DNA of 32,000 nucleotides, taken from positions 810,001-842,000 of the forward strand of contig CP064992.1 in NCBI GenBank assembly GCA_016699935.1, given 5' to 3'. Of the stretch, positions 5,217 through 27,605 are shown piece after piece (position 1 is the first letter of the stretch; each line of letters starts with the position of its first letter). The translations under genes were made by a program, and so were the position numbers. The DNA is from Candidatus Saccharimonadota bacterium (GTDB lineage: Bacteria > Patescibacteriota > Saccharimonadia > Saccharimonadales > UBA4665). The notes beneath the pieces were generated by a model. The model searched no databases. It saw only the letters and a list, made by a program, of their open reading frames with translations, and was not told the origin of the DNA.

Positions 5217-7362
5217 TTAGTGCAGACTTATGACGACTTCGTCATCTTCGTTCTTCCGCAGAAGCATCTTTAGGGTCACTGGGGTACCGCGTGAGGCTAC
5301 AGCGTACACTTGAGAGTCTGGTTCTTTATAGTCTTGGATTGCATTTTCCGTGACAACTGACTGCGCGATGGGCATGCTCTTCTGGGCTAAACCAATATGT
5401 TTGTCGATAACCTCTGGCACAATGTATTCTTGCTCATCCTGAATTTGTCGTTGTATCATCGCCTCATTTACCCCCTCAAGACGCTGTAGATATACATCCA
5501 GGCCGCCGAGCTCGTTGACGTTGTGGAGCTGGCCTTCCTCGAGCACGTATATTGTGTCCATGAGCGCAAGGAGTGATTTGCGGTGGGTCACCATGAGTAC
5601 TGTTTTGTCGCGGATAATTTCTTTCAGTGAGTCGCGGATATAGTTTTCACTCTTGGCATCGAGGGCGGCAGTCGGCTCATCGAGACACAGTATGGGTGCT
5701 TGCTTTATGAGCGATCGGGCTATCGCGACACGTTGGCGTTGCCCGCCGCTGAGGGAGCCACCATTTTCACCAGTGGGCGAGTTGATGCCCATGGGCATTT
5801 TTACGGCAAATTCGAGCACATTTGCAACCTGCACGGAGTATTTCACTTCCTCCACGCTGATCTGGCGGTAGACGTCGCCGTCGTATATGTTCTCGACAAT
5901 TGTTTGATCGAATAACTGCGGATTTTGACTGACCCAAGCGATTTTCCGGCGGAGCTGCTGTAACGAGATTGACTGTGTATCAATACTGTCTATCAGTACC
6001 CTGCCCGACTGCGGCGTGATAAAGAGTGGAGCAATTTCAGGATTGTGCTCTTGCCGCCTCCACTTGGGCCGATGATGGCAACTTTTTCATTTTGGTTGAT
6101 ATGGAGATTCAGGTTCTGGAAAACAACCTGTCCGTTGTACGAGTAGGTAACATTTTGTAGGTCTATAACCCCCGGATATTGGGTGGCAACATGCGGTCAG
6201 AGCGCAAATTTTCGATGTTCTCGTGGTCGCTCAGGACTTCGTAGACGCGACCGACGTCAATTATCTTTTGGTAGCGTGAGGTGATTTGCTTTACGAGGCT
6301 TTCAATAGGCCCCAGTAAGTACCCCATATATGTCATGAAAATGAGCAGCTCACCAAAGGTCATTTTGCCCTGCATCGCAGCAGTACCGCCAAAGTACATG
6401 ACTGTAGATGTCGCTAGAATAACCAAAAATGAATTAGTATTTGCGAGTAGGTTATTCCAGGTAAGACTCTTGCGTGTGGCACGGTATCCCTCGTGCCACA
6501 GCGTATCCACCTTCATGAGTTGCTTCTCTTCAAGTGTAAACGCTTGCACTGTCTCGGCGTTATCGACGGCTTCGTTTATGCTGGAAGCGGTCTTGCTGTT
6601 TATCTCAGTAAGTTGCTGGGCGTATATGCCCATATGAGGGGCAATCAAGCGCATAGTGAGGTACAAGAGTGGCATGAGCACTACCGACACTAACGTGAGT
6701 ACTGGATTGAAGCTGAACATGATGGCTAAAACACCGAGTATCATGATGATAGAACTGATGATAGATGCTGTTGTGCCGAGTACCAATTCTGATAGACTGT
6801 TGGTGACTACATTTTGGCGATAGACATAGTCCCCTTTTGCTAGGCGCTGTTGATGGTAGAGTGGCAGGTGCAAAATGTGACGGAATGATTCGGCTTTTAT
6901 GGAGCGATTGAGCCAAAATCCAATTTTGAGCAAGAGGACATCACTGAACCAGGAAAATCCTGCACCGACCAAAAAAAGTACTATAGACATGAGAGCGGTT
7001 ATAGCGATAAGCTTGGGTTGCCCTGTGAATTGTTCAAGCGGACCCGGTGCTGGGATTGTATTGAATGCCGAATCGGCCATAATTTTTATTGGCCACGGTT
7101 TCAGGAGCGAGACAGCCGCTTCGACTAGGCCAAGTGTTACCACAATCGCTATGGCTGGCCGGGCGCGTTTTTGGTACTTTTTAAGCCATGTTTTGAAATC
7201 AGTTCGGATGGTCTGACGACCATTTGTCTTGAGCCAGGCATCAACAGCTTGATTCACGAGATCTTTTGGCCAACCCAAACCGGTCAGTACATCTGCCAGC
7301 ATGTTTGGAGGGACACCACTAGCAACGGCCATATCAATGGCTTCGTATAGTTTTGGCATCAT
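5217..7362 (-). CDS. Fused ABC exporter (6-TM ABC_membrane domain plus ATPase), split into three ORFs by two frameshifts
   Basis: ORF 6163..7362 gives the N-terminal and transmembrane domains. The middle piece carries Walker A GPSGGGKSTILKLL. ORF 5217..5855 carries LSGGQRQRVAIARSLIKQAPILCLDEPTAALD (signature plus Walker B). The break at 6169-6173 is a 5-base C/G run that needs 6 bases (..PNIRGVIDLQNVTYSY..). The second break is near 6027-6035. Confidence 0.85.
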
Positions 7363-7586
7363 ACGGTAATTTTCCTCATGAGTCTTATGCTTACTTTAGT
7401 ATATAAGAGGATGTGGTGATTGACCAACAACATTGACGCATATACTTTTCCGCTGCTTATCAGTTTTATATATAGAACCGTTTATTAATAGATTTGACGA
7501 GGGATATGTTGCGTAGTATAGTCATATTGCATATGGTAAAAATATTGTATTAGAAAAATAAATAACTAATGAAGGAGGCGAGAGGC

Positions 7587-8947
7587 ATGGTGCGAGCAGC
7601 GGATGATGGCGGTAGTAGCAGCTCATATAGCTACTCTAATGATGTTGAAGAGAATCGATTGAAAAACCAAGCCGCTGTTGCACAGGCCGCAGCCGCACAG
7701 GCTGCAGCTGCTAAACAGCGCGAACAAGAGAGAGCTTTTGCAGCTAAGCAAGCCGCTGCTGCACAAGCCGCAGCCGCACAGGCTGCAGCTGCTAAACAGC
7801 GTCAACAAGAGAGAGCTTTTGCAGCTAAGCAAGCTGAGGAAGCCGCTGCTGCCGCGCAGCTTAACGCACAATACAATTCGATTGAAGATCGTAAGCTTGC
7901 GAACCAAGCAAGCATTGCTCAGAACGACCTTAACAACAGCCGCGAAGATCGTAAGCTTGCAAGTCAAGCGGCAGCCGCACAGGCTGCCCAGCAGGCTCAA
8001 ACCAATTCTCAATACAATTCGATTGAAGATCGTAAGCTTGCGAACCAAGCAAGCATTGCTCAGAACGACCTTAACAACAGCCGCGAAGATCGTAAGCTTG
8101 CAAGTCAAGCGGCAGCCGCACTGGGAAGGCTGCCCAGCAGCTCAAACCAATTCTCAATACAATTCGATTGAAGATCGTAAGCTTGCCAACCAAGCAAGCA
8201 TTGCTCAGAACGACCTTAACAACAGCCGCGAAGATCGTAAGCTTGCAAGTCAAGCGGCAGCCGCACAGGCTGCCCAGCAGGCTCAAACCAATTCTCAATA
8301 CAATTCGATTGAAGATCGTAAGCTTGCAGAACCAAGCAAGCATTGCTCGAACGACCTAACAACAGCCGCGAAGATCGTAAGCTTGCAAGTCAGCGGCAGC
8401 CGCACAGCATGGCATTGACTCACATGTTGAATTAGGTGATGCTTTAACGTCTAGCCCTGGTGATGTTCCTAACCCCGGTGGTGGCTCCAACCCCAGTTCT
8501 GACGACTCGCCCACTCCAGGTGATGTTGGTCGTGTGGAAACTGTCAGACCTGGTGACACGCTAAGCAAGATCGCGCTACGGCATGGTACTACCGTAGAGG
8601 AGCTAGTAAGATTGAATAATATTCAGAATCCAGATTTAATCTTTCCAGACCAAGCTATCAAATTGCCGAACTCTCTCGGTGGCGCTGCTCAGGCGCGGCT
8701 GACTCAGACGGAGTACAGGATTACGTTGTAGTAAAGGGTGATACATTAGTGAAATAGCACAACGCCGTGGTCTTGATTATCGGGAGATTGCAAAGGCAAA
8801 TAACATCGATAACCCAGACATTATTCGCAGTGGTCAGGTAATCAAACTACCGTCAAGTCCGGTTGGTGGTGGTATGGCTGGTGTTGGCGATGATAATGCT
8901 CTTGCCACTACGCCAATAAGTCTGACGAGTTTTACCAAGAATCCCTA
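7587..8947 (+). CDS. Ala/Gln-rich tandem-repeat protein with two C-terminal LysM domains; several frame breaks
   Basis: GGAGG RBS sits 8 nt before the ATG at 7587. Repeats are AAAQAAAAKQR(E/Q)QERAFAAKQ x2 and NSIEDRKLANQASIAQNDLNNSREDRKLASQAAAAQAAQQAQTNSQY x~4. LysM1 is VRPGDTLSKIALRHGTTVEELVRLNNIQNPDLIFPDQAIKLP. LysM2 is VVKGDTLVKIAQRRGLDYREIAKANNIDNPDIIRSGQVIKLP, reached only by adding one A at 8752-8754. Stop at 8945-8947. Confidence 0.7.
7671..7832 (+). repeat. 81-bp coding tandem repeat x2
   Basis: 7671-7751 and 7752-7832 are near-identical (gccgctg(t/c)tgcaca(g/a)gccgcagccgcacaggctgcagctgctaaacagcg..). Confidence 0.85.
7869..8400 (+). repeat. 141-bp coding tandem repeat, ~3.8 copies (units start at 7869, 8010, 8155, 8296)
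   Basis: The unit is caatacaattcgattgaagatcgtaagcttgc..caggctcaaaccaattct. Copy 2/3 junction carries a 5-nt insertion (tggga) and a 1-nt deletion. Copy 4 carries at least 4 single-base indels. Confidence 0.9.
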
Positions 8948-9019
8948 GCTGTATTGGCACGTAAACAATCTACTCGACTTACGTGGCAACTCCCATGACC
9001 CCAGTTTCGCTAGGAGTGT

Positions 9020-9300
9020 TTATATGTCCTCTATTCTGTCGTCAGTGGAGCTATCTTCTCTGATTCCTTCAAGATAAAGGAGCTGCTCAGGAATCGCTCC
9101 TGGACAAGGCTGGTGCAGGTGTGATTCCCGTGTCCGTCGAGTGTATGATGACGATATCTTTGGCTGTGCATAACTAAGATTATATGAGCCAAAGTGGGTG
9201 CGGTGGAGGGTGGTGACGTTGTAGCCGAGAGCGGCGAAATGTGCGGCGGATTTGACGGTTGCGGCCTGCGGCTTTGTGTACTTCCCCACGTCTCTTTGTT
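9020..9300 (-). pseudogene. Orphan 3'-end fragment of an RsuA/RluB-family pseudouridine synthase gene (copy B)
   Basis: On the minus strand, one frame reads AGRNRQIRR and the adjacent frame reads AALGYNVTTLHRTHFGSYNL... Core homology with copies A and C is at 9187-9290. The shared 12-mer cggttgcggcct is at 9256-9267. Confidence 0.55.
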
Positions 9301-9609
9301 GTAGGTTGGACGGAGTCCAGCTGGCCATAACAGCTATGCTATCACACCCGGTGTCGGCTTCGTGGGTGACAATCGCTTCGAGCCCATTGAGGACTGCTTA
9401 GATTACATCATCAGGCGGCCTCATAACATACTAAGCGGTTGAGTAACTGCAAGTGCTAAGACGGGCTTTGCGAATGCTACACCGGATACGAGAGCCACGT
9501 ATGTTTCGTCGGTCTACCTCTTGTGCAAATTCATGTATCATAAACTAATTGAGCTCGCTTGATAGGAAAAGGTTATTGGTGTATAACAAATGACCAGAAA
9601 GGTTATGAC

Positions 9610-9828
9610 ATGGATACTGAACAAGCTCCCGTCGTAGGTTCCCCTGCGGAAATATATGGTGTGCCTAGAGAAGCCGAAGACTTAAGAGGATTTGGTGGTT
9701 TGTGCATGGTTCTAGTGAGACGAGCCGCAGCCTTAGCTTATGGTGCTGCATTAGTCATTGCCGGGATACAGAAAAATTTGAATAGGACAATAACAGATAT
9801 ATTACGACGCGCTCCTTCGCTACATTGA
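9610..9828 (+). CDS. Hypothetical small protein
   Basis: Part of track ORF 9559..9828. The plausible start is MDTEQAPVVG at 9610. It has a C-terminal hydrophobic segment AAALAYGAALVIAGI. I recognise no family. Confidence 0.3.
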   Translation: MDTEQAPVVGSPAEIYGVPREAEDLRGFGGLCMVLVRRAAALAYGAALVIAGIQKNLNRTITDILRRAPSLH

Positions 9829-9951
9829 AAAATAGTGATACTTCTGCGCCATCCAGAAATGACAATAATACTATTAGGACGGGCTTGCTTCCCGTTTATT
9901 AATTATGGCATAAATCGTGTGTTCGATTTGGTCTTGTGCGCCAAGAAAGTA

Positions 9952-10332
9952 ATGTATAATAACCAGATGGATTTTAAAAAATACCCTAGACGTTCAACAA
10001 CATTACTATTGTTATTGGTGGTTGCTTTTGTTTGTTTTTCTATTATCGCGAATACGTTTGGAATGGCTGCACAATCCAAAGGAGCAACAGACGGCGGCGC
10101 TCCCTTTCTAGTCGCATTCTTTTTATTAGGGCCAATCCTGCTTATTTGTGTAATTGCTGGGCTTCTCATCTATAGCTCAATGCATAAAAAATCAACACCG
10201 AATGCTATGGCTGTACCTATGGTCAATAAGCAAACAGTACATGATAGCTCTGCGGTAACTACTACGGCAAGCAATCCAAATCAATTACCTCAGGTTAATC
10301 CTGAAGTGCCAGAACAAGTAAATCGTCAGTAG
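9952..10332 (+). CDS. Small two-TM membrane protein
   Basis: Part of track ORF 9835..10332; the likely start is MYNNQMDFKKYPRR at 9952. There are two hydrophobic helices (TLLLLLVVAFVCFSIIANTF and FLVAFFLLGPILLICVIAGLLIY). The Y-C hairpin follows directly. Confidence 0.45.
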   Translation: MYNNQMDFKKYPRRSTTLLLLLVVAFVCFSIIANTFGMAAQSKGATDGGAPFLVAFFLLGPILLICVIAGLLIYSSMHKKSTPNAMAVPMVNKQTVHDSSAVTTTASNPNQLPQVNPEVPEQVNRQ

Positions 10333-10340
10333 CTTAATTT

Positions 10341-10508
10341 AGCCTCGAGGTCGACATAACTGTCGACCTCAGAAGTGGAGGCTCGCCCTCCCCACTTTTG
10401 GCTGGAGTAAATCCAGCCAAAAAGTTCCCCACCCTAAAGGCACTGTCTCGCATCGCTGCTGACGGCGAGTAGAGCCTTTGTAGTATGCGTATGTCGAATT
10501 GAGGTTAA
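10341..10508. repeat. Inverted-repeat arm Y-C (pairs with 5111-5194), carrying an 83-nt nested insertion at 10382-10464
   Basis: It is the reverse complement of Y-A. It has a perfect hairpin GAGGTCGAC-ATAACT-GTCGACCTC at 10347-10370. Its outer end ..CGAATTGAGGTTAA overlaps the TAA stop (10505-10507) of the pseudouridine synthase gene. Confidence 0.8.
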
Positions 10509-11279
10509 TATATCAATTCGTACGAACCGCTTGGTAACCTTAGCACCGAGTATTTACCAAAGTGGGTTCGGTGGAGGGTGGTCACGGCGTAGCCGAGGCG
10601 GCAGATGTGCGGCGGATTGGCGGTTGCGGCCTTCGGTCATGGTGATTTGGTATGAGTCTGGGAATTCTTTTCTCCATTGATAAGGGAGGCTCGCCTCCCT
10701 CGGGCGTGGCCATCGCTTCTGCTCGGCCGCAGCCCGCTTCACTCGCTCGCTGTTCGCTCGCGCCGGTGCTACGCACCGGTTCGCAAATTCTCGTAACCGA
10801 GAATTTGCTCAAGCCATCCTCTAGCGTCACGCCGTGATCAGCAATGATTTGCTGATGGAGTGGCTGGAGGGGTTTGTCGAGGTGACTTCGTAGACCTTGG
10901 TTTTAGCATAACGAGGATGGGTCAGCTCATTTGCGAGATCGCCATCATCTGTTAGCAGTAGTAGACCAGAAGAATCTTTATCGAGTCGGCCGATGGGTTT
11001 TAGGTGATGGTACTCAACCGGTAAGAGGTCGTAGACGGTTGCGCTGCCCTGTCCGGCTCGAGAACAGACATAGCCTACTGGTTTGTTGAGCATGATGGTC
11101 GTGTGGTTTGTGCGCGGGGTTAGCTTCACCGCATCTGGGCAAACGGTATCTGTTGAGTTCACCTGGGATCCTGTTTCGGCAATCTGATCATTGAGCGTGA
11201 CGCGTCCGTCTGAAATTGCCTTGTCGGCTGCTCGCCGACTGAGTGATGACGCTGAGGCTATAAATTTGTTGAGACGCAT
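10505..11279 (-). CDS. RsuA/RluB-family pseudouridine synthase (S4 domain plus catalytic domain); about four frame breaks and a GC-rich in-frame insertion
   Basis: ORF 10827..11279 reads MRLNKFIASASSLSRRAADKAISDGRVTLN (S4 domain) ..KPVGYVCS..GRLDKDSSGLLLLTDDGDLANELTHPRY (catalytic Asp motif). Shifted frames continue as ..GVTLEDGLSKFSVTRI..(insertion)..KEFPDSYQITMTEGRNRQ..LGYAVTTLHRTHFGKYSVLRLPSGSYELIY, stop at 10505-10507. Confidence 0.8.
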
Positions 11280-11524
11280 GTATCTATGGTAGTCGTCTGC
11301 GACATCGGAAGCAATGTCTTTAGAGTGCTATGCTGTTGGGGTCTTCGCCTGCTGAAGGGGCTGTAGCGACAGGTTGTTGTGCTGGAGCTGCAGGTGCAGA
11401 TGTGGCGACGGTAGGCTGAGGCGTTCCGGGGCTGCCTCTTCTTTGGCTACTTCTTTGGCGAGAAGCTCGTCTAGGTTTGGTCCACTGGTAATATCGTTAA
11501 TTGGTCGTATGACCTTTTTGCCGG

Positions 11525-12112
11525 CTACGTTGACCTGGTCTGATTCATCTGTAGAAGGGGCCGACGGGTGGCAACGCTCTCGGGAGAGGCACTCTGAGGA
11601 ACGGTATCGGTAGGAAGAACTGGCGGCGATGCTGCTGCCGCATTTTCGACAACTGCTTCCGTGCTCGGACTGACCGAAGGCGTTACGTTTGTTGGTTCTT
11701 GAACTTCGGCGTTGGTTACGGTAGTTGTTTCTTCACCTGGGACTGTTTTTTGACTTGGCGGTAGAATCATAGCTGGCGGTTCATTGACGGCGGCAGCCAA
11801 ATCTTCAACTGCCTCAGTCAGGGCTGCTTCATTAGAGTCGGTTACACTTTGGCTGTCGGTGCTTTGGGGCAGCGGGCTTACTGAAGACGTGGTCTGATTA
11901 TTTGCAAAAGCAGCAATTTGAGACTCCACACTGGCCTCTTCTGCGGCAGAGGTTTGTTGTTCGGTGGCTGTGTGAGTGTCAGCGGCTACTATGTTTACGG
12001 GTACTTCGACTTGTGGGGATGATGGTGACACGGCAGCGGTTTGCTCAGGCTTGTCGACCGTTGCTCCTGCTGGTGTAGTTCCTGGTGTCTCCACCTCAGG
12101 GTTTGCAATCAT
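11525..12112 (-). CDS. Pro/Thr/Ala/Glu/Val-rich low-complexity protein or protein tail; reading frame uncertain
   Basis: Track ORF. The whole minus strand from 11290 to 12500 is open, in pieces, in similarly biased frames. The last segment ends ..GKKVIRPINDITSGPNLDELLAKE..EDPNSIAL, stop near 11320. It may be continuous with the receiver protein upstream. Confidence 0.3.
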   Translation of the reverse strand: MIANPEVETPGTTPAGATVDKPEQTAAVSPSSPQVEVPVNIVAADTHTATEQQTSAAEEASVESQIAAFANNQTTSSVSPLPQSTDSQSVTDSNEAALTEAVEDLAAAVNEPPAMILPPSQKTVPGEETTTVTNAEVQEPTNVTPSVSPSTEAVVENAAAASPPVLPTDTVPQSASPESVATRRPLLQMNQTRST

Positions 12113-12939: not shown

Positions 12940-14307
12940 TCATGCTGATGCCGTTGTCGATACTGCTGTTGGGGCTGATGATGTAATGGTCGTTGCTCCA
13001 AGTGGACTTGCTGCTTCAGCCGCCATTTGCTCCTCGGCTTTTTGAGAGGTCAATCGAGGGATATTAATGTAAAACGTACTGCCTTTGTTCAGCTCGCTCT
13101 CGACCCATATCCGACCCTGGTACAGTTCCACAATCTTACGGCAGATGAAGAGACCAAGACCGGTTCCGCCGATAGTGCGAGTGGCGCTATTGTCGACGCG
13201 GTAAAATTTTTGAAATAAGTGGGGGATGTCTTCTGGCGGGATGCCAGCACCGGTATCCCGGATATATACCTGCACAACGCCATCGTTACCGGTTAGCCCT
13301 AAACTCACCTTGCCTTCTTCGGTGTATTTGCAACCGTTATCGAAAATGTTCGTAATAACCTCTCGCATGCGGTCTGGGTCAACCTGCACGTAGTACAGTG
13401 GCCGTACGACTTTGTTCATATCACGTACTTCACCATTGTTGCCGCTGGCGTCTTTGATCTGTGAATTGCCGAAGAGGAACTCCATAAAAAGACCCTTTTT
13501 TTCAGCCGAGAACCTAAGATCTTGAGCAAGCTGTTCAAGGAAGGCACCCATTTCGATTACTTTCGGGTGGTTGGTCAGGCGGCCGTCTTCGGCTTTGGCG
13601 CTCGTGAGGAGATCTTGGAATAACTGGCCGAGATGCTTCGTACTGCTATGAGCTTTTTCGAGGTAGTCGCGGGCGCGATTGTCGATGGTTGCAACCTTCT
13701 CGTTTAGTGCCAGGCTGAGGTAGCCCTCTATGGCAGCGACTGGTGTACGCATTTCATGGCTGGCAGTGCTGATGAACTCGGCCCGTTGACTTTCTTCGGC
13801 GCGCTCTTCGCTAACGTCACGAAACGCCGCAACCATACCTGTTGTGCGCTTGGCGGCGTTGACCAGCGGCGAAACGCTAAAGTTGGTTGCAACGGTCGTC
13901 ATAGCTTTTGTACTCAGGCTGATGGTGTTGTCTCGTACTGATAGGCCGCTTGAAAATGCTTTGGCGAGTGGTGTTTGCTCGGCTGGAGTCGTTTCGCCCT
14001 TGGTGTTGGTAAATTTAAAGACAGATTGCCAATCGAGACCTTCGGCTTCTTGCTTTGTCCACCCGGTGATATTGGTAGCGCCTTGATTGAAGTGTCGGAT
14101 AACCTGCTGGTCGTCGATGAGTACAACGCCGTCTTGTATAGCGCCAAGGATAATGTCTGACTTGGCTTTTTCATCTTTCAGCGAAGTCGCCAGTTTTCCG
14201 GTGACTGCGGCCCCACTGCCCTTTCGTTTTATTGCGAGCACCCAGCCAATTGCTCCAAGCAAGGCGACCACTACAACCCCACCACCGAGAATCAGATATT
14301 GTTTCAT
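12940..14307 (-). CDS. Sensor histidine kinase (TM, PAS-like, HisKA, HATPase_c)
   Basis: Track ORF 12940..14412; the likely start is MKQYLILGGGVVVVALL at 14307. H-box is FISTASHEMRTPVAAIEGYLSL. N-box is NIFDNGCKYT. G-boxes are IRDTGAGIPPEDIPHLFQKFYRVD and GGTGLGLFICRKIVELYQGRIWVESE. The ORF is intact. Confidence 0.88.
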   Translation of the reverse strand: MKQYLILGGGVVVVALLGAIGWVLAIKRKGSGAAVTGKLATSLKDEKAKSDIILGAIQDGVVLIDDQQVIRHFNQGATNITGWTKQEAEGLDWQSVFKFTNTKGETTPAEQTPLAKAFSSGLSVRDNTISLSTKAMTTVATNFSVSPLVNAAKRTTGMVAAFRDVSEERAEESQRAEFISTASHEMRTPVAAIEGYLSLALNEKVATIDNRARDYLEKAHSSTKHLGQLFQDLLTSAKAEDGRLTNHPKVIEMGAFLEQLAQDLRFSAEKKGLFMEFLFGNSQIKDASGNNGEVRDMNKVVRPLYYVQVDPDRMREVITNIFDNGCKYTEEGKVSLGLTGNDGVVQVYIRDTGAGIPPEDIPHLFQKFYRVDNSATRTIGGTGLGLFICRKIVELYQGRIWVESELNKGSTFYINIPRLTSQKAEEQMAAEAASPLGATTITSSAPTAVSTTASA

Positions 14308-14463
14308 AAACTGCTTACGTATAAGTATCTGTTTTTTCCCTGTAAAATGCAAGGTGCATGTCCAGCGAGATATGGACGAAAACTGCCAGATATGGTAACC
14401 TGTTGAAGCCAATTTGAAAATTGAGAACAGTTAATTGAAAATTGGTGCACGTCTGCGCCACCT

Positions 14464-14538
14464 GGCCCCATCTTCTAACGGTTAGGAAATCGGGTTCTCA
14501 TCCCGGAAATAGGAGTTCGATTCTCCTTGGGGTCACCA
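14464..14538 (+). tRNA. tRNA-Glu(CUC): tRNA-Glu (anticodon CUC), CCA encoded, discriminator A73
   Basis: Cloverleaf read by eye: acceptor GGCCCCA/TGGGGTC, D-arm TTCT-AACGGTTA-GGAA, anticodon arm TCGGG-TTCTCAT-CCCGG, T-arm AGGAG-TTCGATT-CTCCT, then A-CCA. Confidence 0.85.
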
Positions 14539-16126
14539 AAAGAGACTTTTCAGGTTCTGAAAGGTCTTTTTTATTGGCTATGTATCTGTAAAGTGGACTA
14601 ATTTTATCGGTTCCAAAGTGCATGGTTTCCATATCAAAGGTTGTACCCTCTGGAAACAGCATAGTTTGGAACCGTACCCGTAGGTCGTAGTCTGCGTCAA
14701 TCCATTGTTTGGCAATATCGTGCATGTGGTTTATAGCATAAGTAATCTTGGCTTCTTGCACCGTCTGCTGGTCTTCTAGCTCGTCTAATTTATCTTTAGC
14801 GTCCAACTTTCTCACATCTAATCGCTCTATCAAGTCTGATAGCTCCTGCTTACGCTTGTCATCTTTTTCAAGCAGCCTGTCCTCGATGGCGTTTAAACGT
14901 GTATCAGCAATATCGTCTAGCACTTCACGCTGTGCTTTCACTTGATCGTTAATACGTCCATTCTCTTTGGCTGCTTGGCGTATCAGAATCTCTTTGTAAC
15001 CTCTTAGGAAGCCCTCTGTGGGTTGTACGTTGCGTAGCATGTCTATCCACGCCTTATGAGCTTCTCCAATGCCTAGAGAACGCTTTGTAACTGTTTTGGG
15101 GCACTTGGGTCTGTAACAGTGGTACCGAGGAGAACTATTCTTCTTACCACCAGATAACGGTGCGGAGCCATATAGCGGTAGATTGCAGCCTACGCACAGT
15201 AGAACTTCTTTGAGTGGATATGTTGGATTGTGTTTGGAATAAGTTTCTTTGACCTTAGCTTTTTTATTCAGGAGCTTCTGATTGTGCCAGTACAGCTCTT
15301 TACTGATAATAGCTTCGTGTTTCCCCTCGACTAGCTCATAGTTCGTGAACTTATCATGAACATAGCCAGCATACTCTGGACGCTTTAATATCTGATAGAC
15401 CCCATTCTTGCCAATTAGCTTTGGCGGTACTCTGGTGCCGTCTTTTTTTGTGTAGGGTTTTGTTTTAACACCTAGCTCATGTGCATAGCGATGTAGCTGT
15501 GCTGGGTTAATATCTGCTTCACTATATTGTTCGAGGAGTTTCTTAATAAGTGGAGCTGTTGCGTCAGGCTTGATAGTGGGACGAGGCTTACCAACATCAT
15601 TCATTATCGTATGTTTCTGGTAACCGAGGATTGGACCATGTTGCCAGTACCCCTGCATAGCCAATGAACGCATATTGTCTGTTGTATTTGAACCTTTGAC
15701 TTCGTTATCAAGCTGACCGTTTAAGACAATCATACCTTCCAAGAAACGACCTATCGGGGTATCGTCCACCATAGGTTCACTTGCTGACCGTATGCCGATA
15801 CCCTTACTTGCCAGTACACCCTTTACCTGCGAGTAATAGGACATAACGTCCCTTGAGCCACGATTTAGCTTGTATACCAAAACCAAGTCAATCTTCTTGG
15901 CATTTTTAACCGCAAGTTTCAGTAGGTTTTGCAGTTCGGTACGTTCGGCATTTTTGCCAGAACGGGCTTCGTCAAAGAACCAGTCGGTAATTATAATATG
16001 ATTCTCATCGGCATATTTTTGTATTACTTTACGCTGTGTTTCGGGGCTTTCACCGTCAATCTGCTTCCTGTCGGAAATCCTAATATAGGCTAGTGCAAAG
16101 CGTGTTACTTGGTAGCTGGTATCCAT
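14498..16126 (-). CDS. Large serine recombinase (integrase)
   Basis: Intact 542-aa ORF. N-terminal resolvase-type catalytic domain: ALAYIRISDRKQ..ETQRKVIQKYA..LVLVYKLNRGSRD. Then a recombinase domain, a Cys-rich zinc-ribbon (CVGCNLPLYG..YHCYRPKCP) and a long coiled-coil (DDIADTRLNAIEDRLLEKDDKRKQELSDLIERLD..). The last ~13 codons are antisense to the tRNA T-arm and acceptor stem. Confidence 0.9.
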   Translation of the reverse strand: MDTSYQVTRFALAYIRISDRKQIDGESPETQRKVIQKYADENHIIITDWFFDEARSGKNAERTELQNLLKLAVKNAKKIDLVLVYKLNRGSRDVMSYYSQVKGVLASKGIGIRSASEPMVDDTPIGRFLEGMIVLNGQLDNEVKGSNTTDNMRSLAMQGYWQHGPILGYQKHTIMNDVGKPRPTIKPDATAPLIKKLLEQYSEADINPAQLHRYAHELGVKTKPYTKKDGTRVPPKLIGKNGVYQILKRPEYAGYVHDKFTNYELVEGKHEAIISKELYWHNQKLLNKKAKVKETYSKHNPTYPLKEVLLCVGCNLPLYGSAPLSGGKKNSSPRYHCYRPKCPKTVTKRSLGIGEAHKAWIDMLRNVQPTEGFLRGYKEILIRQAAKENGRINDQVKAQREVLDDIADTRLNAIEDRLLEKDDKRKQELSDLIERLDVRKLDAKDKLDELEDQQTVQEAKITYAINHMHDIAKQWIDADYDLRVRFQTMLFPEGTTFDMETMHFGTDKISPLYRYIANKKDLSEPEKSLLVTPRRIELLFPG

Positions 16127-16147
16127 ACTTTTATTCTACTGTACCCG

Positions 16148-16336
16148 CTATTTTTTTGGAACCACTTTTTGATTCAACATCATACTACTACTCTCGGTCA
16201 GGGTGAGTATAAGAAGTTCTATTTGGTCATCTGTCATGCCGTTACCGTCCGCTCCTAAGAGCTTACGCATTTCTTTAACGCTAATAATGAGCTGTGGTTC
16301 ATAGGAATGTGCCACCTTGGTTCTTTCTTGAACCAC
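16148..16336 (-). CDS. Small protein upstream of the recombinase (possible directionality factor or HTH); function unknown
   Basis: 62-aa track ORF 22 nt upstream of the recombinase gene. It has a segment ISVKEMRKLLGADG resembling excisionase-type HTH starts. The evidence is weak. Confidence 0.3.
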   Translation of the reverse strand: MVQERTKVAHSYEPQLIISVKEMRKLLGADGNGMTDDQIELLILTLTESSSMMLNQKVVPKK

Positions 16337-16470
16337 GAGAACGGTTTATTACCGAACCCCCACTGAGAATGCCGTAAACCTGTGTGTGACCTGTAATCAA
16401 AAGAACGTTGCAGGTCAGACGGCTTCAAGTCTACTACTTAAAACAATCTGGTGTGCAACGTTCCATCTTT

Positions 16471-16499
16471 AATTATACGCAAGCAGAAGCAGTTTGTCA
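16471..16499 (-). promoter_or_regulatory. Consensus sigma70-type promoter TTGACA-N17-TATAAT reading toward the small ORF and recombinase
   Basis: The plus strand has tgtcaa at 16494-16499 and attata at 16471-16476 with an exact 17-nt spacer. A 10-bp inverted repeat GAACGTTGCA/TGCAACGTTC (16405-16414 / 16454-16463) lies just downstream of the predicted start site. Confidence 0.5.
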
Positions 16500-16613
16500 A
16501 TACTTTAGTGCTTATTTTTGCGGTTAACACAAACATATATCGGCGAAAAAAAATAATGTGTACGGTAACACTGTCTTTCTTGTTGCGAATAAGTGAACGG
16601 TTTCACTGCTAAC

Positions 16614-16973
16614 TCACTGCTGTTTGTTTGATTTCACAACTTCGATAACTAACTTAGGTCTGTCGAAGAAGCCTGTTTTGTCTTCCATGATGTAACTTCT
16701 GTCCTGATGTTCAGCAAGCCATCTGACGGCTCGTACGTCGCCCTCAAGAGCCTTCTTAATCATAGCCAGTACCATTGCCTGTGCGTAAGAGGTGGGCTGT
16801 CCTTTAGCTAGGTCAGTTAAGTGGGTACTGAATAGTAGGTTGGCTCCTGCATTCTGCTCTAGTAGTTTACGGACTATCGTAGATATATTCTTAGAACCCT
16901 GCTTGCGTCCAGCAGGGTTACCAGATTGTCCTGACTTCCAAGGCTTTAGATTTGGGTAGTTTTTGTTATACAT
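16614..16973 (-). CDS. DUF5681-like phage-associated protein
   Basis: The N-terminal motif LKPWKSGQSGNPAGRKQGSKN matches the (K/P)GQSGNPxGRPKGSKN signature of DUF5681 proteins found in phage and satellite modules. Confidence 0.55.
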   Translation of the reverse strand: MYNKNYPNLKPWKSGQSGNPAGRKQGSKNISTIVRKLLEQNAGANLLFSTHLTDLAKGQPTSYAQAMVLAMIKKALEGDVRAVRWLAEHQDRSYIMEDKTGFFDRPKLVIEVVKSNKQQ

Positions 16974-17017
16974 CTCTCTATCTATTGTACTAAAAACGGG
17001 TTTGGCACCGTCTCTAA

Positions 17018-18326
17018 TCAGGGGTCGAGTCGTTTCGGACCACGATAGAGGTAGGTAACTTCTCTTACGTTTGAAACGTCCAGCAGTTTCATTAGTAGTC
17101 TGCTAGGGCTTAATCCGAGACCGCCATGTGGAGGACAGCCATACCTAAAGAAGTTAAAGTAAAACTCTAGGGGCTCTCTGTGTAGTCCTTTTTCCTTGGC
17201 TTGTTCCAGCAATTTCTCGTAACGGTGTTCACGCTGTGCACCTGTGGTTACTTCAATTCCGTTCCAAAGCAAGTCAAAGCTCTTGGTCAGAGTCTCATCA
17301 CTCTCTAGACGCATGTGGTAGAAAGGTCGTGCCGTGACAGGATATTCAGTTACAAATACAAACTCGTGACCGTGCTGCTCTTTTATAAGCTCTGATAATT
17401 TACGTTCTTCTTCTGGGTTAAGGTCGTCTACTTTGTCTGACTCAATCTTAAATGGAGCCAGTAACTCTTTAGCTTGTTTCATAGTGACCTGCGGAAAAGG
17501 TATAGTCGGAACTACGATTTCTCGGTTATACGCTTTAAGAATCGCTTCACCGTGCTTCTCCTTGACAGCTCCAATCATAGCAACCAGCCACTTTTCTTCT
17601 TCCGCAATAACGTCTTGGTGTGACTCTACAAAAGACAGCTCCATGTCATATCCTGTGAATTCGGTATCATGTCGAGAGGTAAAAGATGGGTTCGCCCGAA
17701 AAACAGGACCAGTTTCAAAGATACGTTCGAAGCCCGAAGCCATAGCCATTTGCTTGTATAACTGCGGTGATTGAGCAAGATAAGCGGTACGTTCAAAATA
17801 CTTCACCTCAAACAGTTCCGCAGCACCCTCACTAGGTATGCTCATGAGCTTAGGAGAGTGTATCTCCATGTACCCATTTTCAGTCCAGTATTGACGGGCA
17901 GCTTGCTCCATAGTCGTCCACGCTTCAAAGATAAGTCGTTTGTCAGTTCTTCGTAGGTCAAGCCAACGCCAGTCAAGACGCTTCTGCTGTTCCGCTTCGT
18001 TTTCAGCATTCTCAGATACGGGTATAGGTAATTCTGGGTCTGCTAGCGAGAGCACTTCCAAATTATCAACCATTATTTCAACGCCGTGTGGTGCGTTCTT
18101 TTCTAGTTTTGCCGTGCCATTTACTTTAATCACTGACTCGATCGTCAGGCTCTTACTGGCTTCGTAGGCAGGGAGCTTTTGAGAACAACTGATTGAAAGC
18201 TGCCCTGATTATTACGGATAATTAAAAGACAATACTGCCTTGGTCACGAACTGTTTGGAGCCAACCATCTACTACGACAGCCTCTCCTGCTTTCTCGGTT
18301 AACTCTGTTGCTGATAGATGTTTCAT
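17018..18326 (-). CDS. aspS: Aspartyl-tRNA synthetase, archaeal/eukaryal-type class IIb (no GAD insertion); N-terminal OB-fold out of frame at two homopolymers
   Basis: ORF 17018..18133 shows motif 1 (GYMEIHSPKLM), motif 2 (FRANPSFTSRHDTEFTGYDMEL), motif 3 (GCPPHGGLGLSPSRLLM) and the type-2 AspRS C-terminus EVTYLYRGPKRLDP. Upstream, AGGAG plus ATG at 18326 gives MKHLSATELTEKAGEAVVVDGWLQTVRDQGSIVF. Adding one base at run 18224-18227 and one at 18177-18180 restores ..LIIRNNQGSFQSVVLKKLPAYEASKSLTIESVIKVNG. Confidence 0.8.
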
Positions 18327-18339
18327 ACTGCTCCTTTCC

Positions 18340-18590
18340 GCAAATATAAAAATACCCTTACAGTAAAGCTGATTATTCAGTTCTACTGCAAGGGTGATAA
18401 AGTCACGGTGCCACCTTGCTTTGTTGCTCTATTGCTATTGCAACCTTTGTACCTGCGAAAGGAATATGCTGTAACGGGCATGTCCGAGGAGTTCTAATAA
18501 CCTTACGGCGTTCTTCTCCTAGCTCAGCAGTGTCGGCTGCGTCATAGCTCCTAGGCACTACTTTACCACAGAGCTTAATGATTTGCTAGT
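18340..18590 (-). promoter_or_regulatory. T-box riboswitch leader (terminator/antiterminator type) upstream of aspS
   Basis: The minus-strand RNA contains AAAGCAAGGUGGCACCGUGAC (plus 18402-18423), matching the T-box consensus AAnnnGGGUGGUACCGCG. The antiterminator pairing is GCAAGG..CCUUGC, with bulge UGGC able to pair with a tRNA 3' end GCCA. The AAAGUAGUG element near the 5' end resembles the Stem I AGUA motif. A mutually exclusive terminator follows. Confidence 0.7.
18346..18395 (-). terminator. Intrinsic terminator of the T-box leader
   Basis: A 12-bp stem ACCCUUGCAGUA / UACUGUAAGGGU (one G-U pair) is followed by AUUUUUAU. Its 5' strand overlaps the 3' strand of the antiterminator. Confidence 0.65.
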
Positions 18591-18644
18591 GTTTTAATAA
18601 GATTGCATAATAAGTAGCCAAAGCTCGATATTGTATAATATATG

Positions 18645-18685
18645 TATAGGGACTGGACAATTTCGCCCAACCACTTGCTCACTTC
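18645..18685. repeat. Repeat S1 (~80% identical to 22141-22180)
   Basis: ATAGGGACTGGACAATTTCGCCCAACCACTTGCTCACTT versus ATAGGGTTGGGACCATTTCGCTCAACTATTTGCTGACTT. Read on the minus strand, both lie just upstream of a gene (T-box-aspS and the DUF3592 gene) and include a -35-like TTGTCC/TGGTCC. Confidence 0.6.
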
Positions 18686-18799
18686 ATAATAATACAAAGC
18701 ACACCTGATAATCCAACTAGATAAGCCATAGGTTCACAACTACGCAGGGAGAGGTAATGACCACTGTACTCCCTTGAGTAACTCTACCCAACGCAGTAT

Positions 18800-18985
18800 C
18801 TCCTCACAGATAAGGTTCCAGTTCGCCTCTATCAGGGTCACCAAGTAAAAAGCTCAGCCATAAGGCTGGGCTTTTTACTTGGTTCCTTCAGGCTGAGGCG
18901 AACTCTGAAGAACGAGCGAAGCGAATGGGGAGTTCGCTAATCGAGGGTGCGCGTTAGGAGCCAAAGCTCCGAGCACGCCGCAAGA
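18800..18985 (+). repeat. Repeat R1: GC-rich hairpin element, containing a tRNA-3'-end-like remnant and a terminator-like hairpin
   Basis: It shares tcctcacagat(a/g)aggttcca..cttggtt(c/t)cttcaggc(t/c)gagg(c/t)gaactc(t/c)gaagaacgagcgaagcgaatggggagt with 21023-21100. Local hairpins are GCGAACTC..GAGTTCGC and GGAGC-CAAA-GCTCC. The extra segment 18821-18883 reads gttcgcctctatcagggtcacca plus ACCAAGTAAAAAGC..GCTTTTTACTTGGT. Confidence 0.7.
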
Positions 18986-19309
18986 ATATACAAAGTATTC
19001 TCCTTGGGTCACAAATAAATTGCAAAGCAAATGCCAGTATCCGCAAATTCAGCGTCGTCGTTACTCCAGCGAGTGATTGTAACCTCATCCCCTCAATCGC
19101 CATAGCAGCATTTTGAACCGGCACTTCTTAAAAGTAGCTGGCATATTCGTCCTTCAGCTCGTCTATGGATTAAGTAGCCCTAACTTGTAATTTGCGTATC
19201 AACTAAAATCGTACACCAAGCCCTACAATACGAACAGCGGGCATCGTTGATTTTCTATAAGTATGGGGCTATAGTTTTTTTAGTAGTTCATGATATCGAA
19301 AGAACAAAT

Positions 19310-20906: not shown

Positions 20907-21022
20907 ACCTTAAACTATAGTAGTTTTTGACTTATCTTTCTATCATGATTAGTACGTATCTGTTGCTGCAGGTAATTCCAACGACTAAAGTCGTTTACAG
21001 CGCATTCGTTTCCATTGAATTA

Positions 21023-21150
21023 CCTCCTCACAGATGAGGTTCCACTTGGTTTCTTCAGGCCGAGGTGAACTCCGAAGAACGAGCGAAGCGAATGGGGAGT
21101 GCGATAACAAGCTAGCTCTCGCAGGAGCTCGCTCCGAGAAAGCTCGTGGT
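21023..21150 (+). repeat. Repeat R2: GC-rich hairpin element
   Basis: See R1. This copy lacks the tRNA-like/terminator insert. It contains the hairpin GGAGC-TC-GCTCC. Track ORF 20985..21179 (minus strand) overlaps it and is probably spurious. Confidence 0.7.
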
Positions 21151-22180: not shown

Positions 22181-22183
22181 TTA

Positions 22184-22240
22184 ACAAGCTAAGCCCTAAG
22201 GACGGGCTTCTTACCTGATTTTTTCAGGCTGAGCCGAACG
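22184..22240 (+). repeat. Repeat R3: partial R element (terminator-like hairpin plus ttcaggctgagccgaac)
   Basis: About 80% identity to 18846-18903: AAGCT(C/A)AGCC.TAAGG.C.GGGCTT.TTAC.TG.....TTCAGGCTGAG.CGAAC. Confidence 0.6.
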
Positions 22241-26369: not shown

Positions 26370-27605
26370 TTATATGTCCCTTACGCTGCCGAAAGGGACT
26401 CGTTTGATGATGACATCCTGCATGTTTGCCATGGTGGCGGGTACAACGGTGTACTCGCCGTAGCGGTCATTTAGGGTGTCTGTTGCTCTGGCGAGCGAGC
26501 GAGTGTTCAGCCTAGTACCGTCGAACAGGCCTAGCTGTAGCGGTGTGACGGGCTGCACGTCGAATGCGGCAATGTTTAGGTGGATGACTCGGGCGGGGAT
26601 TTCTACCAACCTAAAAGGCGCATGATATTTAGGTACAGTTCCTGGGTGGAGTACGCTGCTGCTGGTAAGCGACGACTTTTACCCCACCAGCTGTGGTTTT
26701 CGAAGCCCAGGCCTAAAAATATGCCATTCGCTTGGTAGCCGTGCTGCCGTAGCCGTCGCCCAGTCTTTTCGCAAAGTTTCATTATGAGCTTTGCAATTTT
26801 TTCTGGGTCTGCAGTTTTGTCGCCTACAGCGTAATCATTGCCAAAACTACGCGTGCGAAACTGTTCGGCATCTATTTCGTATCCGCGTAGGCGTAAATAC
26901 CAGTAGTAGCCAGCTATGCTTTTAAAAACCTCTTTTTGAGCTTTACCATAGGCGCCTCCAGAAAGTCTAGCGGTGTGTATATGCCCGCTAGGTTGAGCCG
27001 AGCTGCGTAGCGGTGGTTGATGCCGGGTAGATCCATAAGACCTAGCTGGCCGTATATATTGTGGATGTCGACGTAACGTATGGTGTCTAGCCCGTTTGGT
27101 TTGTCGAGGCTGGCGGCAATTTTTGCCAGGAACCGATTTGGGCCTATGCCTATGTTTACTGTAACGTATTCGCCCAGTTCGTCGTGTATGTCGCGTTTGA
27201 TGGCGCGCCCGACGTCTGCTAAGGGCTGGCCGTTTTGCAGCGCCAGAGAGCCGCTGAATTCCACAACAAATTCATCTATAGATTTTGGCACAACCTTGTT
27301 TGTGTACCGCTCTAGTACCTTTTTGAAGCGCCTGTGGGCGTCGAAATATTTCTCTGGGTCGGGCGTGAGGATGACGATGTTCGGGTCCAGCTTTTGGCGT
27401 CCCGGATGCGCATGAGTTTTATACCCTGCCGCCGAGCTTCGTACGATGAGGCTATTATGAAACCTCCTGGGCTGTCATATGCCGCCACGCCAACTGGTTT
27501 ATGCCGGATTAGTCTGTTTGCCTGTTGCTCTATGATGGCGTAGCAGGAATTGAGATCTATGTGCATGGTGAGGGGTTTGGCAGTGTTAATCGGCAAGTCC
27601 GTCAT
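26370..27605 (-). CDS. Y-family DNA polymerase (UmuC/ImpB-like), split into four pieces by three frameshifts
   Basis: The N-terminus is MHIDLNSCYAIIEQQANRLIRHKPVGVAAYDSPGGFIIASSYEARRQGIK. It continues ..RDAKKLDPNIVILTPDPEKYFDAHRRFKKVLERYTNKVVPKSIDEFVVEF..IGIGPNRFLAKIAASLDKPNGL..LPGINHRYAARLNLAGIYTPLDFL.., then ..YWYLRLRGYEIDAEQF.., and the C-terminus is VIHLNIAAFDVQPVTPLQLGLFD. Two of the three breaks are A4 runs that need to be A5. Confidence 0.8.

Follow-up and report, generated by a model that had tools for sequence, protein, structure and literature searches.

Overview of the locus

The window analysed here is a 32,000-nucleotide (nt) stretch of a Candidatus Saccharimonadota genome (assembly GCA_016699935.1, contig CP064992.1, positions 810,001 to 842,000, forward strand). 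It contains a 4305-bp integrative element (14539..18843, minus strand) that abuts the 3′ end of a tRNA-Glu gene and carries aspS, the gene for an archaeal-type aspartyl-tRNA synthetase (AspRS), behind a T-box leader of unusual build. All positions are those of the window unless another locus is named, and related loci fetched for comparison are given L numbers.

The integration target is an intact tRNA-Glu(CUC) gene with encoded CCA (14464..14538, plus strand; found by ARAGORN, and scoring 56 bits against the Rfam tRNA model), which supplies the attB side of attL. Its final hexamer, TCACCA (14533..14538, tRNA positions 71–76), is the attL core and the point at which identity to a second copy of the element begins. 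On the minus strand follow the genes for a large serine recombinase of 542 aa (14498..16126), a 62-aa open reading frame (ORF) directly upstream of the recombinase gene (16148..16336), a DUF5681 protein of 119 aa (16614..16973; PF18932, 4.3e-13; phrog_26239) and aspS (17018..18326), and then the T-box leader (18348–18553) and its promoter. The far end is closed by a pseudo-tRNA 3′ arm on the plus strand (18812..18843), recognised by comparison with the second copy, which ends in the attR core TCACCA (18838–18843).

The recombinase contains Resolvase (PF00239, 2.8e-21) and Recombinase (PF07508, 5.3e-08) domains and matches the integrase family PHROG 95 (phrog_95, 4.9e-67); its scores for NCBIfam CcrB, CcrC and XisF are far under the cutoffs. 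Its last 13 codons and stop codon cross attL into the antisense strand of the tRNA gene. The 62-aa ORF is a candidate regulator or directionality factor, and the DNA of its region (16279–16500) is conserved in the elements of two related loci, L006 and L048. The DUF5681 gene is present in the L005 element (tblastx, 80% identity) and absent from those of L006 and L048. Just outside attR, a hairpin with a T-run (18846..18883, plus strand; inverted repeat I2, also found by the terminator scan) is probably the native tRNA-Glu terminator, displaced by the insertion.

Borders of the integrative element

A second copy of the element occurs in the metagenome contig APMI01083369.1 (L047) and in ERZ965287 k127_480401 (L113), a longer assembly of the same data; the border evidence thus comes from two assemblies of one wastewater data set, together with a parallel architecture in four other loci. 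Two homopolymer indels are the sole differences between the window and these copies over 4305 bp, with zero substitutions. The otherwise complete identity runs from TCACCA at 14533–14538 through the recombinase gene, the DUF5681 gene, aspS, the T-box and a further 257 nt to TCACCA at 18838–18843, and beyond both ends the sequences are unrelated. At the hexamer the flanks swap from the tRNA-Glu of host A to that of host B. The tRNA-Glu(CUC) that the element abuts in L113 is identical to that of the window at only 60 of 75 nt and has different flanks, which means that L113 comes from a different host.

Defined by this alignment, the mobile unit consists of the recombinase gene, the small ORF, the DUF5681 gene (where present), aspS, the T-box and the pseudo-tRNA arm. 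The sequence-only reading of the window had placed aspS and its leader inside a serine-recombinase island, and the second copy bears this out. The predicted attP junction of the excised element reads ..CTCTATCAGGGTCACCA/AAAGAGACTTTTCAGG.., and the predicted empty attB in tRNA-Glu reads ..GGGGTCACCA/AGTAAAAAGCTCAGCC.., the slash marking the junction in each.

One candidate for attR, ATTCTCCTTGGG-TCAC at 18997–19013, was discarded, as the comparison with L047 and L113 sets the true border at 18843. It lies 154 nt beyond attR, agrees at 16 of 17 positions with the 3′-terminal part of the tRNA-Glu in the window (14520–14536), and is possibly the relic of an older integration at the same tRNA. Partial copies of an intergenic repeat, 77–91% identical, are found at 18788–18940, 21012–21107 and 22182–22239, the first of which spans the pseudo-tRNA arm, attR and the flanking hairpin; these three copies may be att-site relics or members of a small repeat family.

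In L113 (3451–5232 and 5129–5134 of that locus) a second serine recombinase of 593 aa, 23% identical to the window recombinase, reads across TGGTGA into the pseudo-tRNA arm of the aspS element, and upstream of it are Mrr, DUF3768 and FtsK-gamma genes. Judged from this arrangement, L113 is a tandem accretion of recombinase elements at one tRNA-Glu.

The aspS gene and its product

As assembled, the aspS frame (start ATG at 18326–18324, stop at 17020–17018, minus strand) is interrupted by two 1-nt deletions, one in a T-run (18227–18224) and one in a C-run (18173–18171). One added base at each run gives an AspRS of 436 aa that matches 436-aa database proteins with 97% identity and 100% coverage, and is 90% identical to its closest named homologues, which NCBI calls 'aspartate--tRNA(Asn) ligase [Candidatus Saccharibacteria]'. 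Both L047 and L113 have an extra base at exactly these two homopolymer sites, which restores the frame. Other genes of the window are broken in a similar way: pth (2011–2664) falls into three frames, an ABC exporter gene (5217–7362) is split, rluB (9176–11279) is frame-broken, and the IMS/UmuC (26914–27605) and histidine kinase (29991–31480) genes are each in two pieces. The pth, rluB and second histidine kinase frames also change relative to their orthologues in L107. Since so many frames are broken, indel errors are pervasive in this assembly, and the intact copies mark both aspS frameshifts as homopolymer errors of sequencing or assembly. The earlier suspicion of an error at 18224–18227 was correct, but that at 18177–18180 was misplaced, the second deletion being in the C-run at 18173–18171.

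The repaired enzyme is a complete AspRS of the short type, as had been read from the sequence. Both NCBIfam equivalogs are passed (NF003483, 467.4 bits against a cutoff of 353; TIGR00458, 382.5 against 368.4), the scores having been taken on P0001, a protein 97% identical to the repaired window AspRS. Residues 5–436 align with residues 7–438 of the archaeal structures 3nel and 1b8a, and the protein also aligns end-to-end with Thermus AspRS2. Bacterial AspRS align to residues 12–250 only, the N-terminal part, from which we conclude that the window enzyme has no GAD insertion. The 'archaeal/eukaryal' type named in the sequence-only reading is no sign of a foreign origin: the archaeal type is the ordinary AspRS of Saccharibacteria and of other bacteria of the candidate phyla radiation (CPR). 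The enzyme belongs to the aspartate--tRNA(Asn) ligase family and is probably non-discriminating.

Structure of the T-box leader

The leader was aligned across 15 loci (the window and 14 others, with AspRS identities from 57% to 97%) and given an explicit structure, in which 96.3% of cells are paired and compensatory changes occur in 25 of the 40 pairs. When partners were slid by 1–3 columns only 31–44% of cells remained paired, with 2–9 compensatory pairs, and none of 500 shuffles matched the true alignment. On this model the leader is a real T-box, functional-looking and unusual in build.

Stem I is ultrashort (18521..18549, 29 nt). It has a 3-bp base helix (18549–18547 with 18523–18521), a kink-turn (K-turn) with a UAU bulge and tandem GA/GA pairs, and a 4-bp upper helix (18540–18537 with 18530–18527) capped by a 6-nt apical loop, CCGACA (18536–18531). 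Its two helices are 98–100% paired, with compensatory changes in five of seven pairs. The AG bulge and distal loop of a long Stem I, the platform that stacks on the tRNA elbow, are missing. Stem II (18520–18487) follows, with invariant internal loops AAGAA and AUUAGAA, and then the Stem IIA/B pseudoknot (18486–18475 with 18469–18466; compensatory changes in three of four pairs), the whole region spanning 18466..18520 and covering helices 3–6 of the covariation analysis. After the pseudoknot come a small hairpin and then Stem III (18423..18444), which corresponds to helix 8 and shows compensatory changes in four of five pairs.

The leader core AAGCAAGGUGGCACCGUG is present. The antiterminator (18388..18419) includes the T-box sequence AAGGUGGCACCGUG at 18416–18403 and a 7-nt bulge, UGGCACC (18413–18407), of which UGGC occupies 18413–18410; its helices A1 and A2 (helices 9 and 10) are 100% paired across the alignment, with compensatory changes. 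The intrinsic terminator (18348..18394) consists of a hairpin at 18394–18355, which has partial covariation support, and an invariant U-run at 18352–18348. Folding gives −25.3 kcal/mol (z = −7.2) for the terminator hairpin and −9.8 kcal/mol for the antiterminator, and the two structures compete because the 3′ strand of the antiterminator is the 5′ strand of the terminator. The Shine-Dalgarno sequence AAAGGAG (18337–18331), identified from the sequence and the leader alignment, is 10 nt past the U-run, outside the hairpin and not sequestered. Together, the U-run behind the hairpin and the unsequestered Shine-Dalgarno sequence indicate transcriptional control. These energies and covariations uphold the earlier description of a T-box leader with competing antiterminator and terminator and a U-tract. 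A few nt upstream of Stem I, an extended −10 promoter, TGTGGTAAAGT (18560..18570), is predicted from a TGnTAnAnT block that is conserved across the alignment; a simple consensus scan did not call it.

A search with the Rfam T-box model RF00230, proposed earlier as a check, gave a divided answer. A local search of 501 nt matched 18387–18554 (minus strand) at 43.6 bits (E = 2e-8), whereas the gathering score of 93 bits was not reached in the window or in any of 11 relatives tested. The RF00230 alignment has 4 nt where the model has 74 positions of Stem I. Our own alignment was turned into a covariance model, which returned 21 full-length matches from the ∼1 Mb of fetched loci, every one of them directly upstream of aspS, including two outside the training set (L008, 150 bits; L011, 122 bits).

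Specifier and tRNA specificity

We place the specifier in the apical loop of Stem I, where GAC (18534–18532) is followed by A (18531), because a triplet with a 3′ purine at this place is the arrangement described for T-boxes with an 'ultrashort' Stem I (PMC7583486). Our definition of that class is taken from this review. The apical-loop triplet is GAC or AAC in 17 of 17 distinct leaders. The loop reads C-N-GAC-A in the window and in L006, L048, L005, L001, L106, L107, L111, L112, L049, L053 and L011, and C/U-N-AAC-A, an Asn specifier, in L108, L109, L065, L017 and L008; in L007 a U replaces the final A. By this alignment the window specifier is that for Asp, and the cognate tRNA is tRNA-Asp.

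Both specifier positions suggested earlier have to be given up. The GAC of AUGACG (~18541–18543) belongs to the GA motif of the K-turn, and the AAC of GAAGAACG (~18510–18512) to the conserved AAGAA internal loop of Stem II; each is invariant where the apical loop switches from GAC to AAC. The idea of an Asn specifier survives for the five relatives with AAC and fails for the window, which reads GAC. The Asn specifiers of the relatives are an indirect hint that fits a non-discriminating AspRS.

G73 is the discriminator base of tRNA-Asp and tRNA-Asn. As predicted in the sequence-only reading, the UGGC bulge fits a GCCA 3′ end, that is, a G73 tRNA, and not the adjoining A73 tRNA-Glu. In L017 and L011 the bulge is UGGU instead of UGGC.

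Related loci with and without a recombinase

Among AspRS at least 86% identical to that of the window, the T-box and aspS unit is found in ten distinct genomic contexts. TGGTGA with a pseudo-tRNA arm lies upstream of aspS in L005, L006, L048 and L113; in the first three it is ∼500 nt upstream of the ATG, ..TCTCTTnTGGTGA is found at the 3′ end of the recombinase gene, and the flanks differ. The L005 module as a whole has the opposite orientation with respect to the conserved flank of histidine kinase (HK), response regulator (RR) and rluB genes. L001–L004 (CP065017.1 and three independent assemblies) have a core of TGGTG at tRNA-Gly(CCC). The window recombinase is 36% identical to that of L005 and 25% identical to that of L001.

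Other relatives have the gene and leader but no recombinase. L107, L111 and L112 (AspRS 86–88% identical) have the same T-box, lack both the recombinase and the pseudo-tRNA arm, and keep the order aspS, one to five genes, tRNA-Glu, HK, RR, rluB, der and pth, which is syntenic with the window. The sequence-only reading was to be given up if aspS proved to be the only copy in the genome and syntenic in relatives lacking the recombinase; these three loci supply the synteny, and the reading is to that extent weakened. L106 and L115 (AspRS 89–90% identical) also lack a recombinase; their aspS lies just upstream of a convergent tRNA-Met (L106) or tRNA-Tyr (L115), and L115 keeps att-like repeats. In L108 (AspRS 81% identical) aspS is among rnc, rpsP and trmD. 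We considered L107 as a decayed element, but the 129-aa gene that separates aspS from tRNA-Glu there shows no homology to the 130-aa gene of the L048 element, and the idea has no direct support.

Three further arrangements in these loci were noted. L109 has three class IIb synthetase genes in a row (8001–12035): the first is the T-box AspRS gene, with its Asn specifier, the second encodes an AspRS paralogue that is 53% identical and over the NF003483 cutoff, and the third a 439-aa AsnRS-like protein that is under the AsnRS cutoffs. In L108 a large serine recombinase gene that is not linked to aspS (12955–14583) overlaps at its 3′ end the 3′ end of tRNA-Gln, an architecture shared with the window. 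In Saccharibacteria the CCA ends of tRNA genes may thus be the general target of this recombinase family. In L001 (CP065017.1; also in L002–L004) perfect inverted repeats of 172 bp (7452–7623/9341–9512) bracket the T-box and aspS, and perfect inverted repeats of 105 bp (9508–9612/11300–11404) bracket the adjacent recombinase gene. The middle block, 9341–9612, is the reverse complement of the predicted attP junction, and the layout is the same in four independent assemblies; the segments may be invertible. Long inverted repeats around aspS are absent from the window, L005 and L006.

Proposed function and origin of the element

We think it probable that the window carries a 4305-bp serine-recombinase element at tRNA-Glu whose T-box-attenuated aspS is a captured housekeeping gene and most likely encodes the working AspRS of the cell. 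It adjoins the 3′ end of tRNA-Glu(CUC), where the crossover would fall within TCACCA, and its one cargo operon comprises the promoter, the T-box leader and aspS. In the default state the −25 kcal/mol terminator is expected to form, so that transcription stops before aspS. When uncharged tRNA-Asp builds up, its GUC anticodon would pair with GAC in the apical loop of Stem I, and Stem II and the IIA/B pseudoknot would probably clamp the anticodon duplex, as in the actinobacterial ileS T-boxes. Pairing of the free GCCA end of the tRNA with the bulge UGGC would then stabilise the antiterminator and allow RNA polymerase to read into aspS.

As to its origin, aspS probably either was taken up by a recombinase element at the tRNA-Glu site that adjoins aspS in the relatives, or arose together with such an element. 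The aspS of this lineage would natively neighbour a tRNA integration hot spot and would later have moved, presumably by the action of the recombinase, among tRNA sites and hosts, with the recombinase module frequently exchanged or lost. A captured housekeeping gene is more likely than a resistance paralogue, because the AspRS type is normal for Saccharibacteria and because recombinase-free relatives keep aspS beside tRNA-Glu.

Several observations weigh against this account. According to the review PMC7583486, a transcriptional T-box depends on the platform of a long Stem I, so that platform-less function is here a prediction from the modelled structure. With RF00230 below its gathering score, membership of the T-box family rests on our own structural analysis. 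L109, with its second AspRS paralogue and its AsnRS-like gene beside the T-box copy, indicates that two AspRS can coexist, and on arrival in a new host the aspS of the element must be, at least transiently, a second copy. The recombinases beside aspS are only 25–38% identical to each other, whereas the AspRS are 90–97% identical; because of this divergence, either the recombinase module is swapped more often than its cargo, or different elements target one neighbourhood. Exact-word scans of viral contigs and of the fetched loci, which are weak, did not turn up the predicted circular attP junction, and no directionality factor was identified, the 62-aa ORF having no match in the Pfam and PHROG scans. 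Relatives of the AspRS or the recombinase were likewise not found in viral contigs, in searches by exact peptide words of low sensitivity, and a phage origin thus gains no support from them.

We would go further only tentatively, and with somewhat less than even confidence, to the proposal that the only aspS of one clade is the sole cargo of a selfish 4.3-kb element that hops between tRNA CCA ends and hosts, under the control of an undescribed class of platform-less, transcription-terminating T-box that toggles between Asp and Asn. If this were true, a gene essential for translation would itself be physically mobile, on an element that the cell could not lose.

Mobile resistant copies of aminoacyl-tRNA synthetases (aaRS) are known, an example being the plasmid-borne mupirocin-resistant IleRS, and the principal alternative is that the element brings an auxiliary or inhibitor-resistant AspRS, a second aspS that the T-box would induce when the resident AspRS is inhibited, for instance by a mimic of aspartyl-adenylate, or when charging of tRNA-Asp or tRNA-Asn falls. 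An element that is mobile and has crossed between two hosts does bring a second copy on arrival, a T-box would respond to exactly such a fall in tRNA-Asp charging, and some Saccharibacteria, such as L109, do have two AspRS genes. We nevertheless consider it unlikely. The gene is 86–90% identical to recombinase-free aspS genes that have the same T-box, and it sits at their syntenic tRNA-Glu position; its type is standard for the phylum, and the copy on the element is not divergent from the chromosomal orthologues. The 32-kb window has no further aspS, at the syntenic place or elsewhere, and no known resistance-conferring sequence feature was identified, though none was tested.

Less likely still, and by a clear step, is that aspS is a fixed chromosomal gene and that a recombinase element merely landed between it and tRNA-Glu. 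The shared gene order of L107, L111 and L112, and the low identity of the recombinases beside aspS, would both agree with such a history. The complete identity with L113 and L047, however, takes in aspS, the T-box and the 257 nt beyond it and stops at TCACCA; L005, L006 and L048 share the end of TGGTGA and arm upstream of aspS within other flanks; and the L005 module is inverted relative to its HK/RR flank. That aspS is a decaying pseudogene with two real frameshifts is most improbable: the frame is broken twice within 55 nt as assembled, but each break is an undercalled homopolymer, two other assemblies have the gene intact in a copy with zero substitutions in 4.3 kb, and at least five other genes of the window are similarly frameshifted.

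Comparison with known systems

The T-box, the archaeal-type AspRS and the large-serine-recombinase element are each of a known kind. Like the canonical transcriptional T-box (RF00230; Bacillus tyrS and glyQS), the leader lies upstream of an aaRS gene, has a K-turn, the T-box sequence and a purine after its specifier, and can fold into either an antiterminator or a terminator; it differs in that the canonical Stem I has a specifier internal loop, an AG bulge and a distal loop, and the window leader is without these ∼74 model positions. With the actinobacterial ileS T-boxes it has in common a short Stem I that lacks the elbow platform and presents the specifier, with a purine after it, in an apical loop; Stem II, the IIA/B pseudoknot and Stem III are also shared, as is a UGGN bulge. 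Those T-boxes, however, control translation by sequestering the Shine-Dalgarno sequence of ileS, whereas the window leader ends in a strong terminator hairpin and U-run and leaves the Shine-Dalgarno sequence of aspS free; it reads Asp (Asn in relatives) and occurs in Saccharibacteria (CPR). In the review PMC7583486 the ultrashort Stem I is tied to translational actinobacterial T-boxes, the platform is held to be essential for transcriptional ones, and the work of Sherwood et al. 2015 and the ileS T-box structures of M. tuberculosis and N. farcinica (6UFG, 6UFM) are summarised. In the T-box database TBDB, the short-Stem-I model was searched in Actinobacteria and among truncated class I hits only.

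With respect to the regulated gene, one parallel is in Clostridium acetobutylicum, in which the T-box controlling an operon of non-discriminating AspRS and gatCAB reportedly, in work attributed to Saad et al., has an Asn specifier. The regulated enzyme is likewise an archaeal-type or non-discriminating AspRS, and the Asn specifier recurs in L008, L017, L065, L108 and L109; the window differs in its Asp specifier, the other build of its Stem I, the lack of a linked gatCAB and its location on a mobile element. The enzyme itself resembles Thermus thermophilus AspRS2 and the archaeal AspRS (1n9w, 3nel, 1b8a) in its full-length alignment, its ∼430 residues, the lack of a GAD insertion and its NCBIfam equivalog. 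In Thermus such an AspRS is a second one beside a bacterial-type enzyme, whereas in Saccharibacteria it appears to be the usual type.

The element resembles those of other large serine recombinases, such as the phiC31 and Bxb1 integrases and SCCmec with CcrAB at the 3′ end of rlmH, in its Resolvase and Recombinase domains, its short crossover core, a recombinase gene that abuts the att site, site-specific integration into a conserved gene's 3′ end, and accretion in tandem (in L113). In contrast to these it measures only 4.3 kb, has no phage, conjugation or resistance genes, targets the TCACCA end of a tRNA, and has as its sole cargo a housekeeping-type aaRS with its riboswitch.

Our literature searches returned nothing relevant that links T-boxes with Saccharibacteria or Patescibacteria, and nothing relevant on Saccharibacteria AspRS, on GatCAB in CPR bacteria or on aaRS on serine recombinase islands. 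Three features appear to be new: on the modelled structure, a platform-less T-box with an ultrashort Stem I that would act by transcription termination, in CPR bacteria; a minimal integrative element with a riboswitch-controlled housekeeping-type aaRS as its sole cargo, and with direct evidence, from the matching copies, of transfer from host to host; and a switching of Asp and Asn specifiers, as aligned here, on the leaders of orthologous aspS genes. A family of platform-less, terminator-coupled T-boxes in CPR bacteria, supported by covariation, provides a natural test of the view that transcriptional T-boxes need the platform for a sufficiently fast capture of tRNA, and that an ultrashort Stem I without it goes with slow translational switches of Actinobacteria (PMC7583486). 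Because the family is invisible to Rfam at the gathering score, T-boxes are probably under-counted in CPR genomes. An aaRS gene that is identical, with its own riboswitch, in two hosts offers an unusually clean case of transfer of a core translation gene by site-specific recombination; were it the sole copy, it would amount to an addiction mechanism and to a route for aaRS replacement in reduced genomes. The switch from Asp to Asn specifier points to the tRNA that limits the demand for AspRS in each lineage, and to the use of a non-discriminating AspRS.

Other features of the window

Besides the element, the window contains pth, der, the ABC exporter gene, rluB, two two-component pairs and rlmH, and genes for a TylF-type methyltransferase, TrmB, IMS/UmuC and SRAP; no gat genes are present in the 32 kb. 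Taken with the names of the homologues, this gene content assigns the window to a Saccharibacteria (CPR) chromosome. A low-complexity ORF rich in Ala and Gln (7569–8418), with the tandem repeats ..AAAQAAAAKQREQERAFAAKQA.. and ..NSIEDRKLANQASIAQNDLNNSREDRKLASQAAAA.., runs on into a second frame and is without a Pfam match. The last ∼45 codons of rluB are duplicated (9176–9281 and 10511–10646), ∼1.3 kb apart, on either side of an ORF for a 165-aa membrane protein (9835–10332), a layout that suggests either an insertion that duplicated its target or an artefact of assembly.

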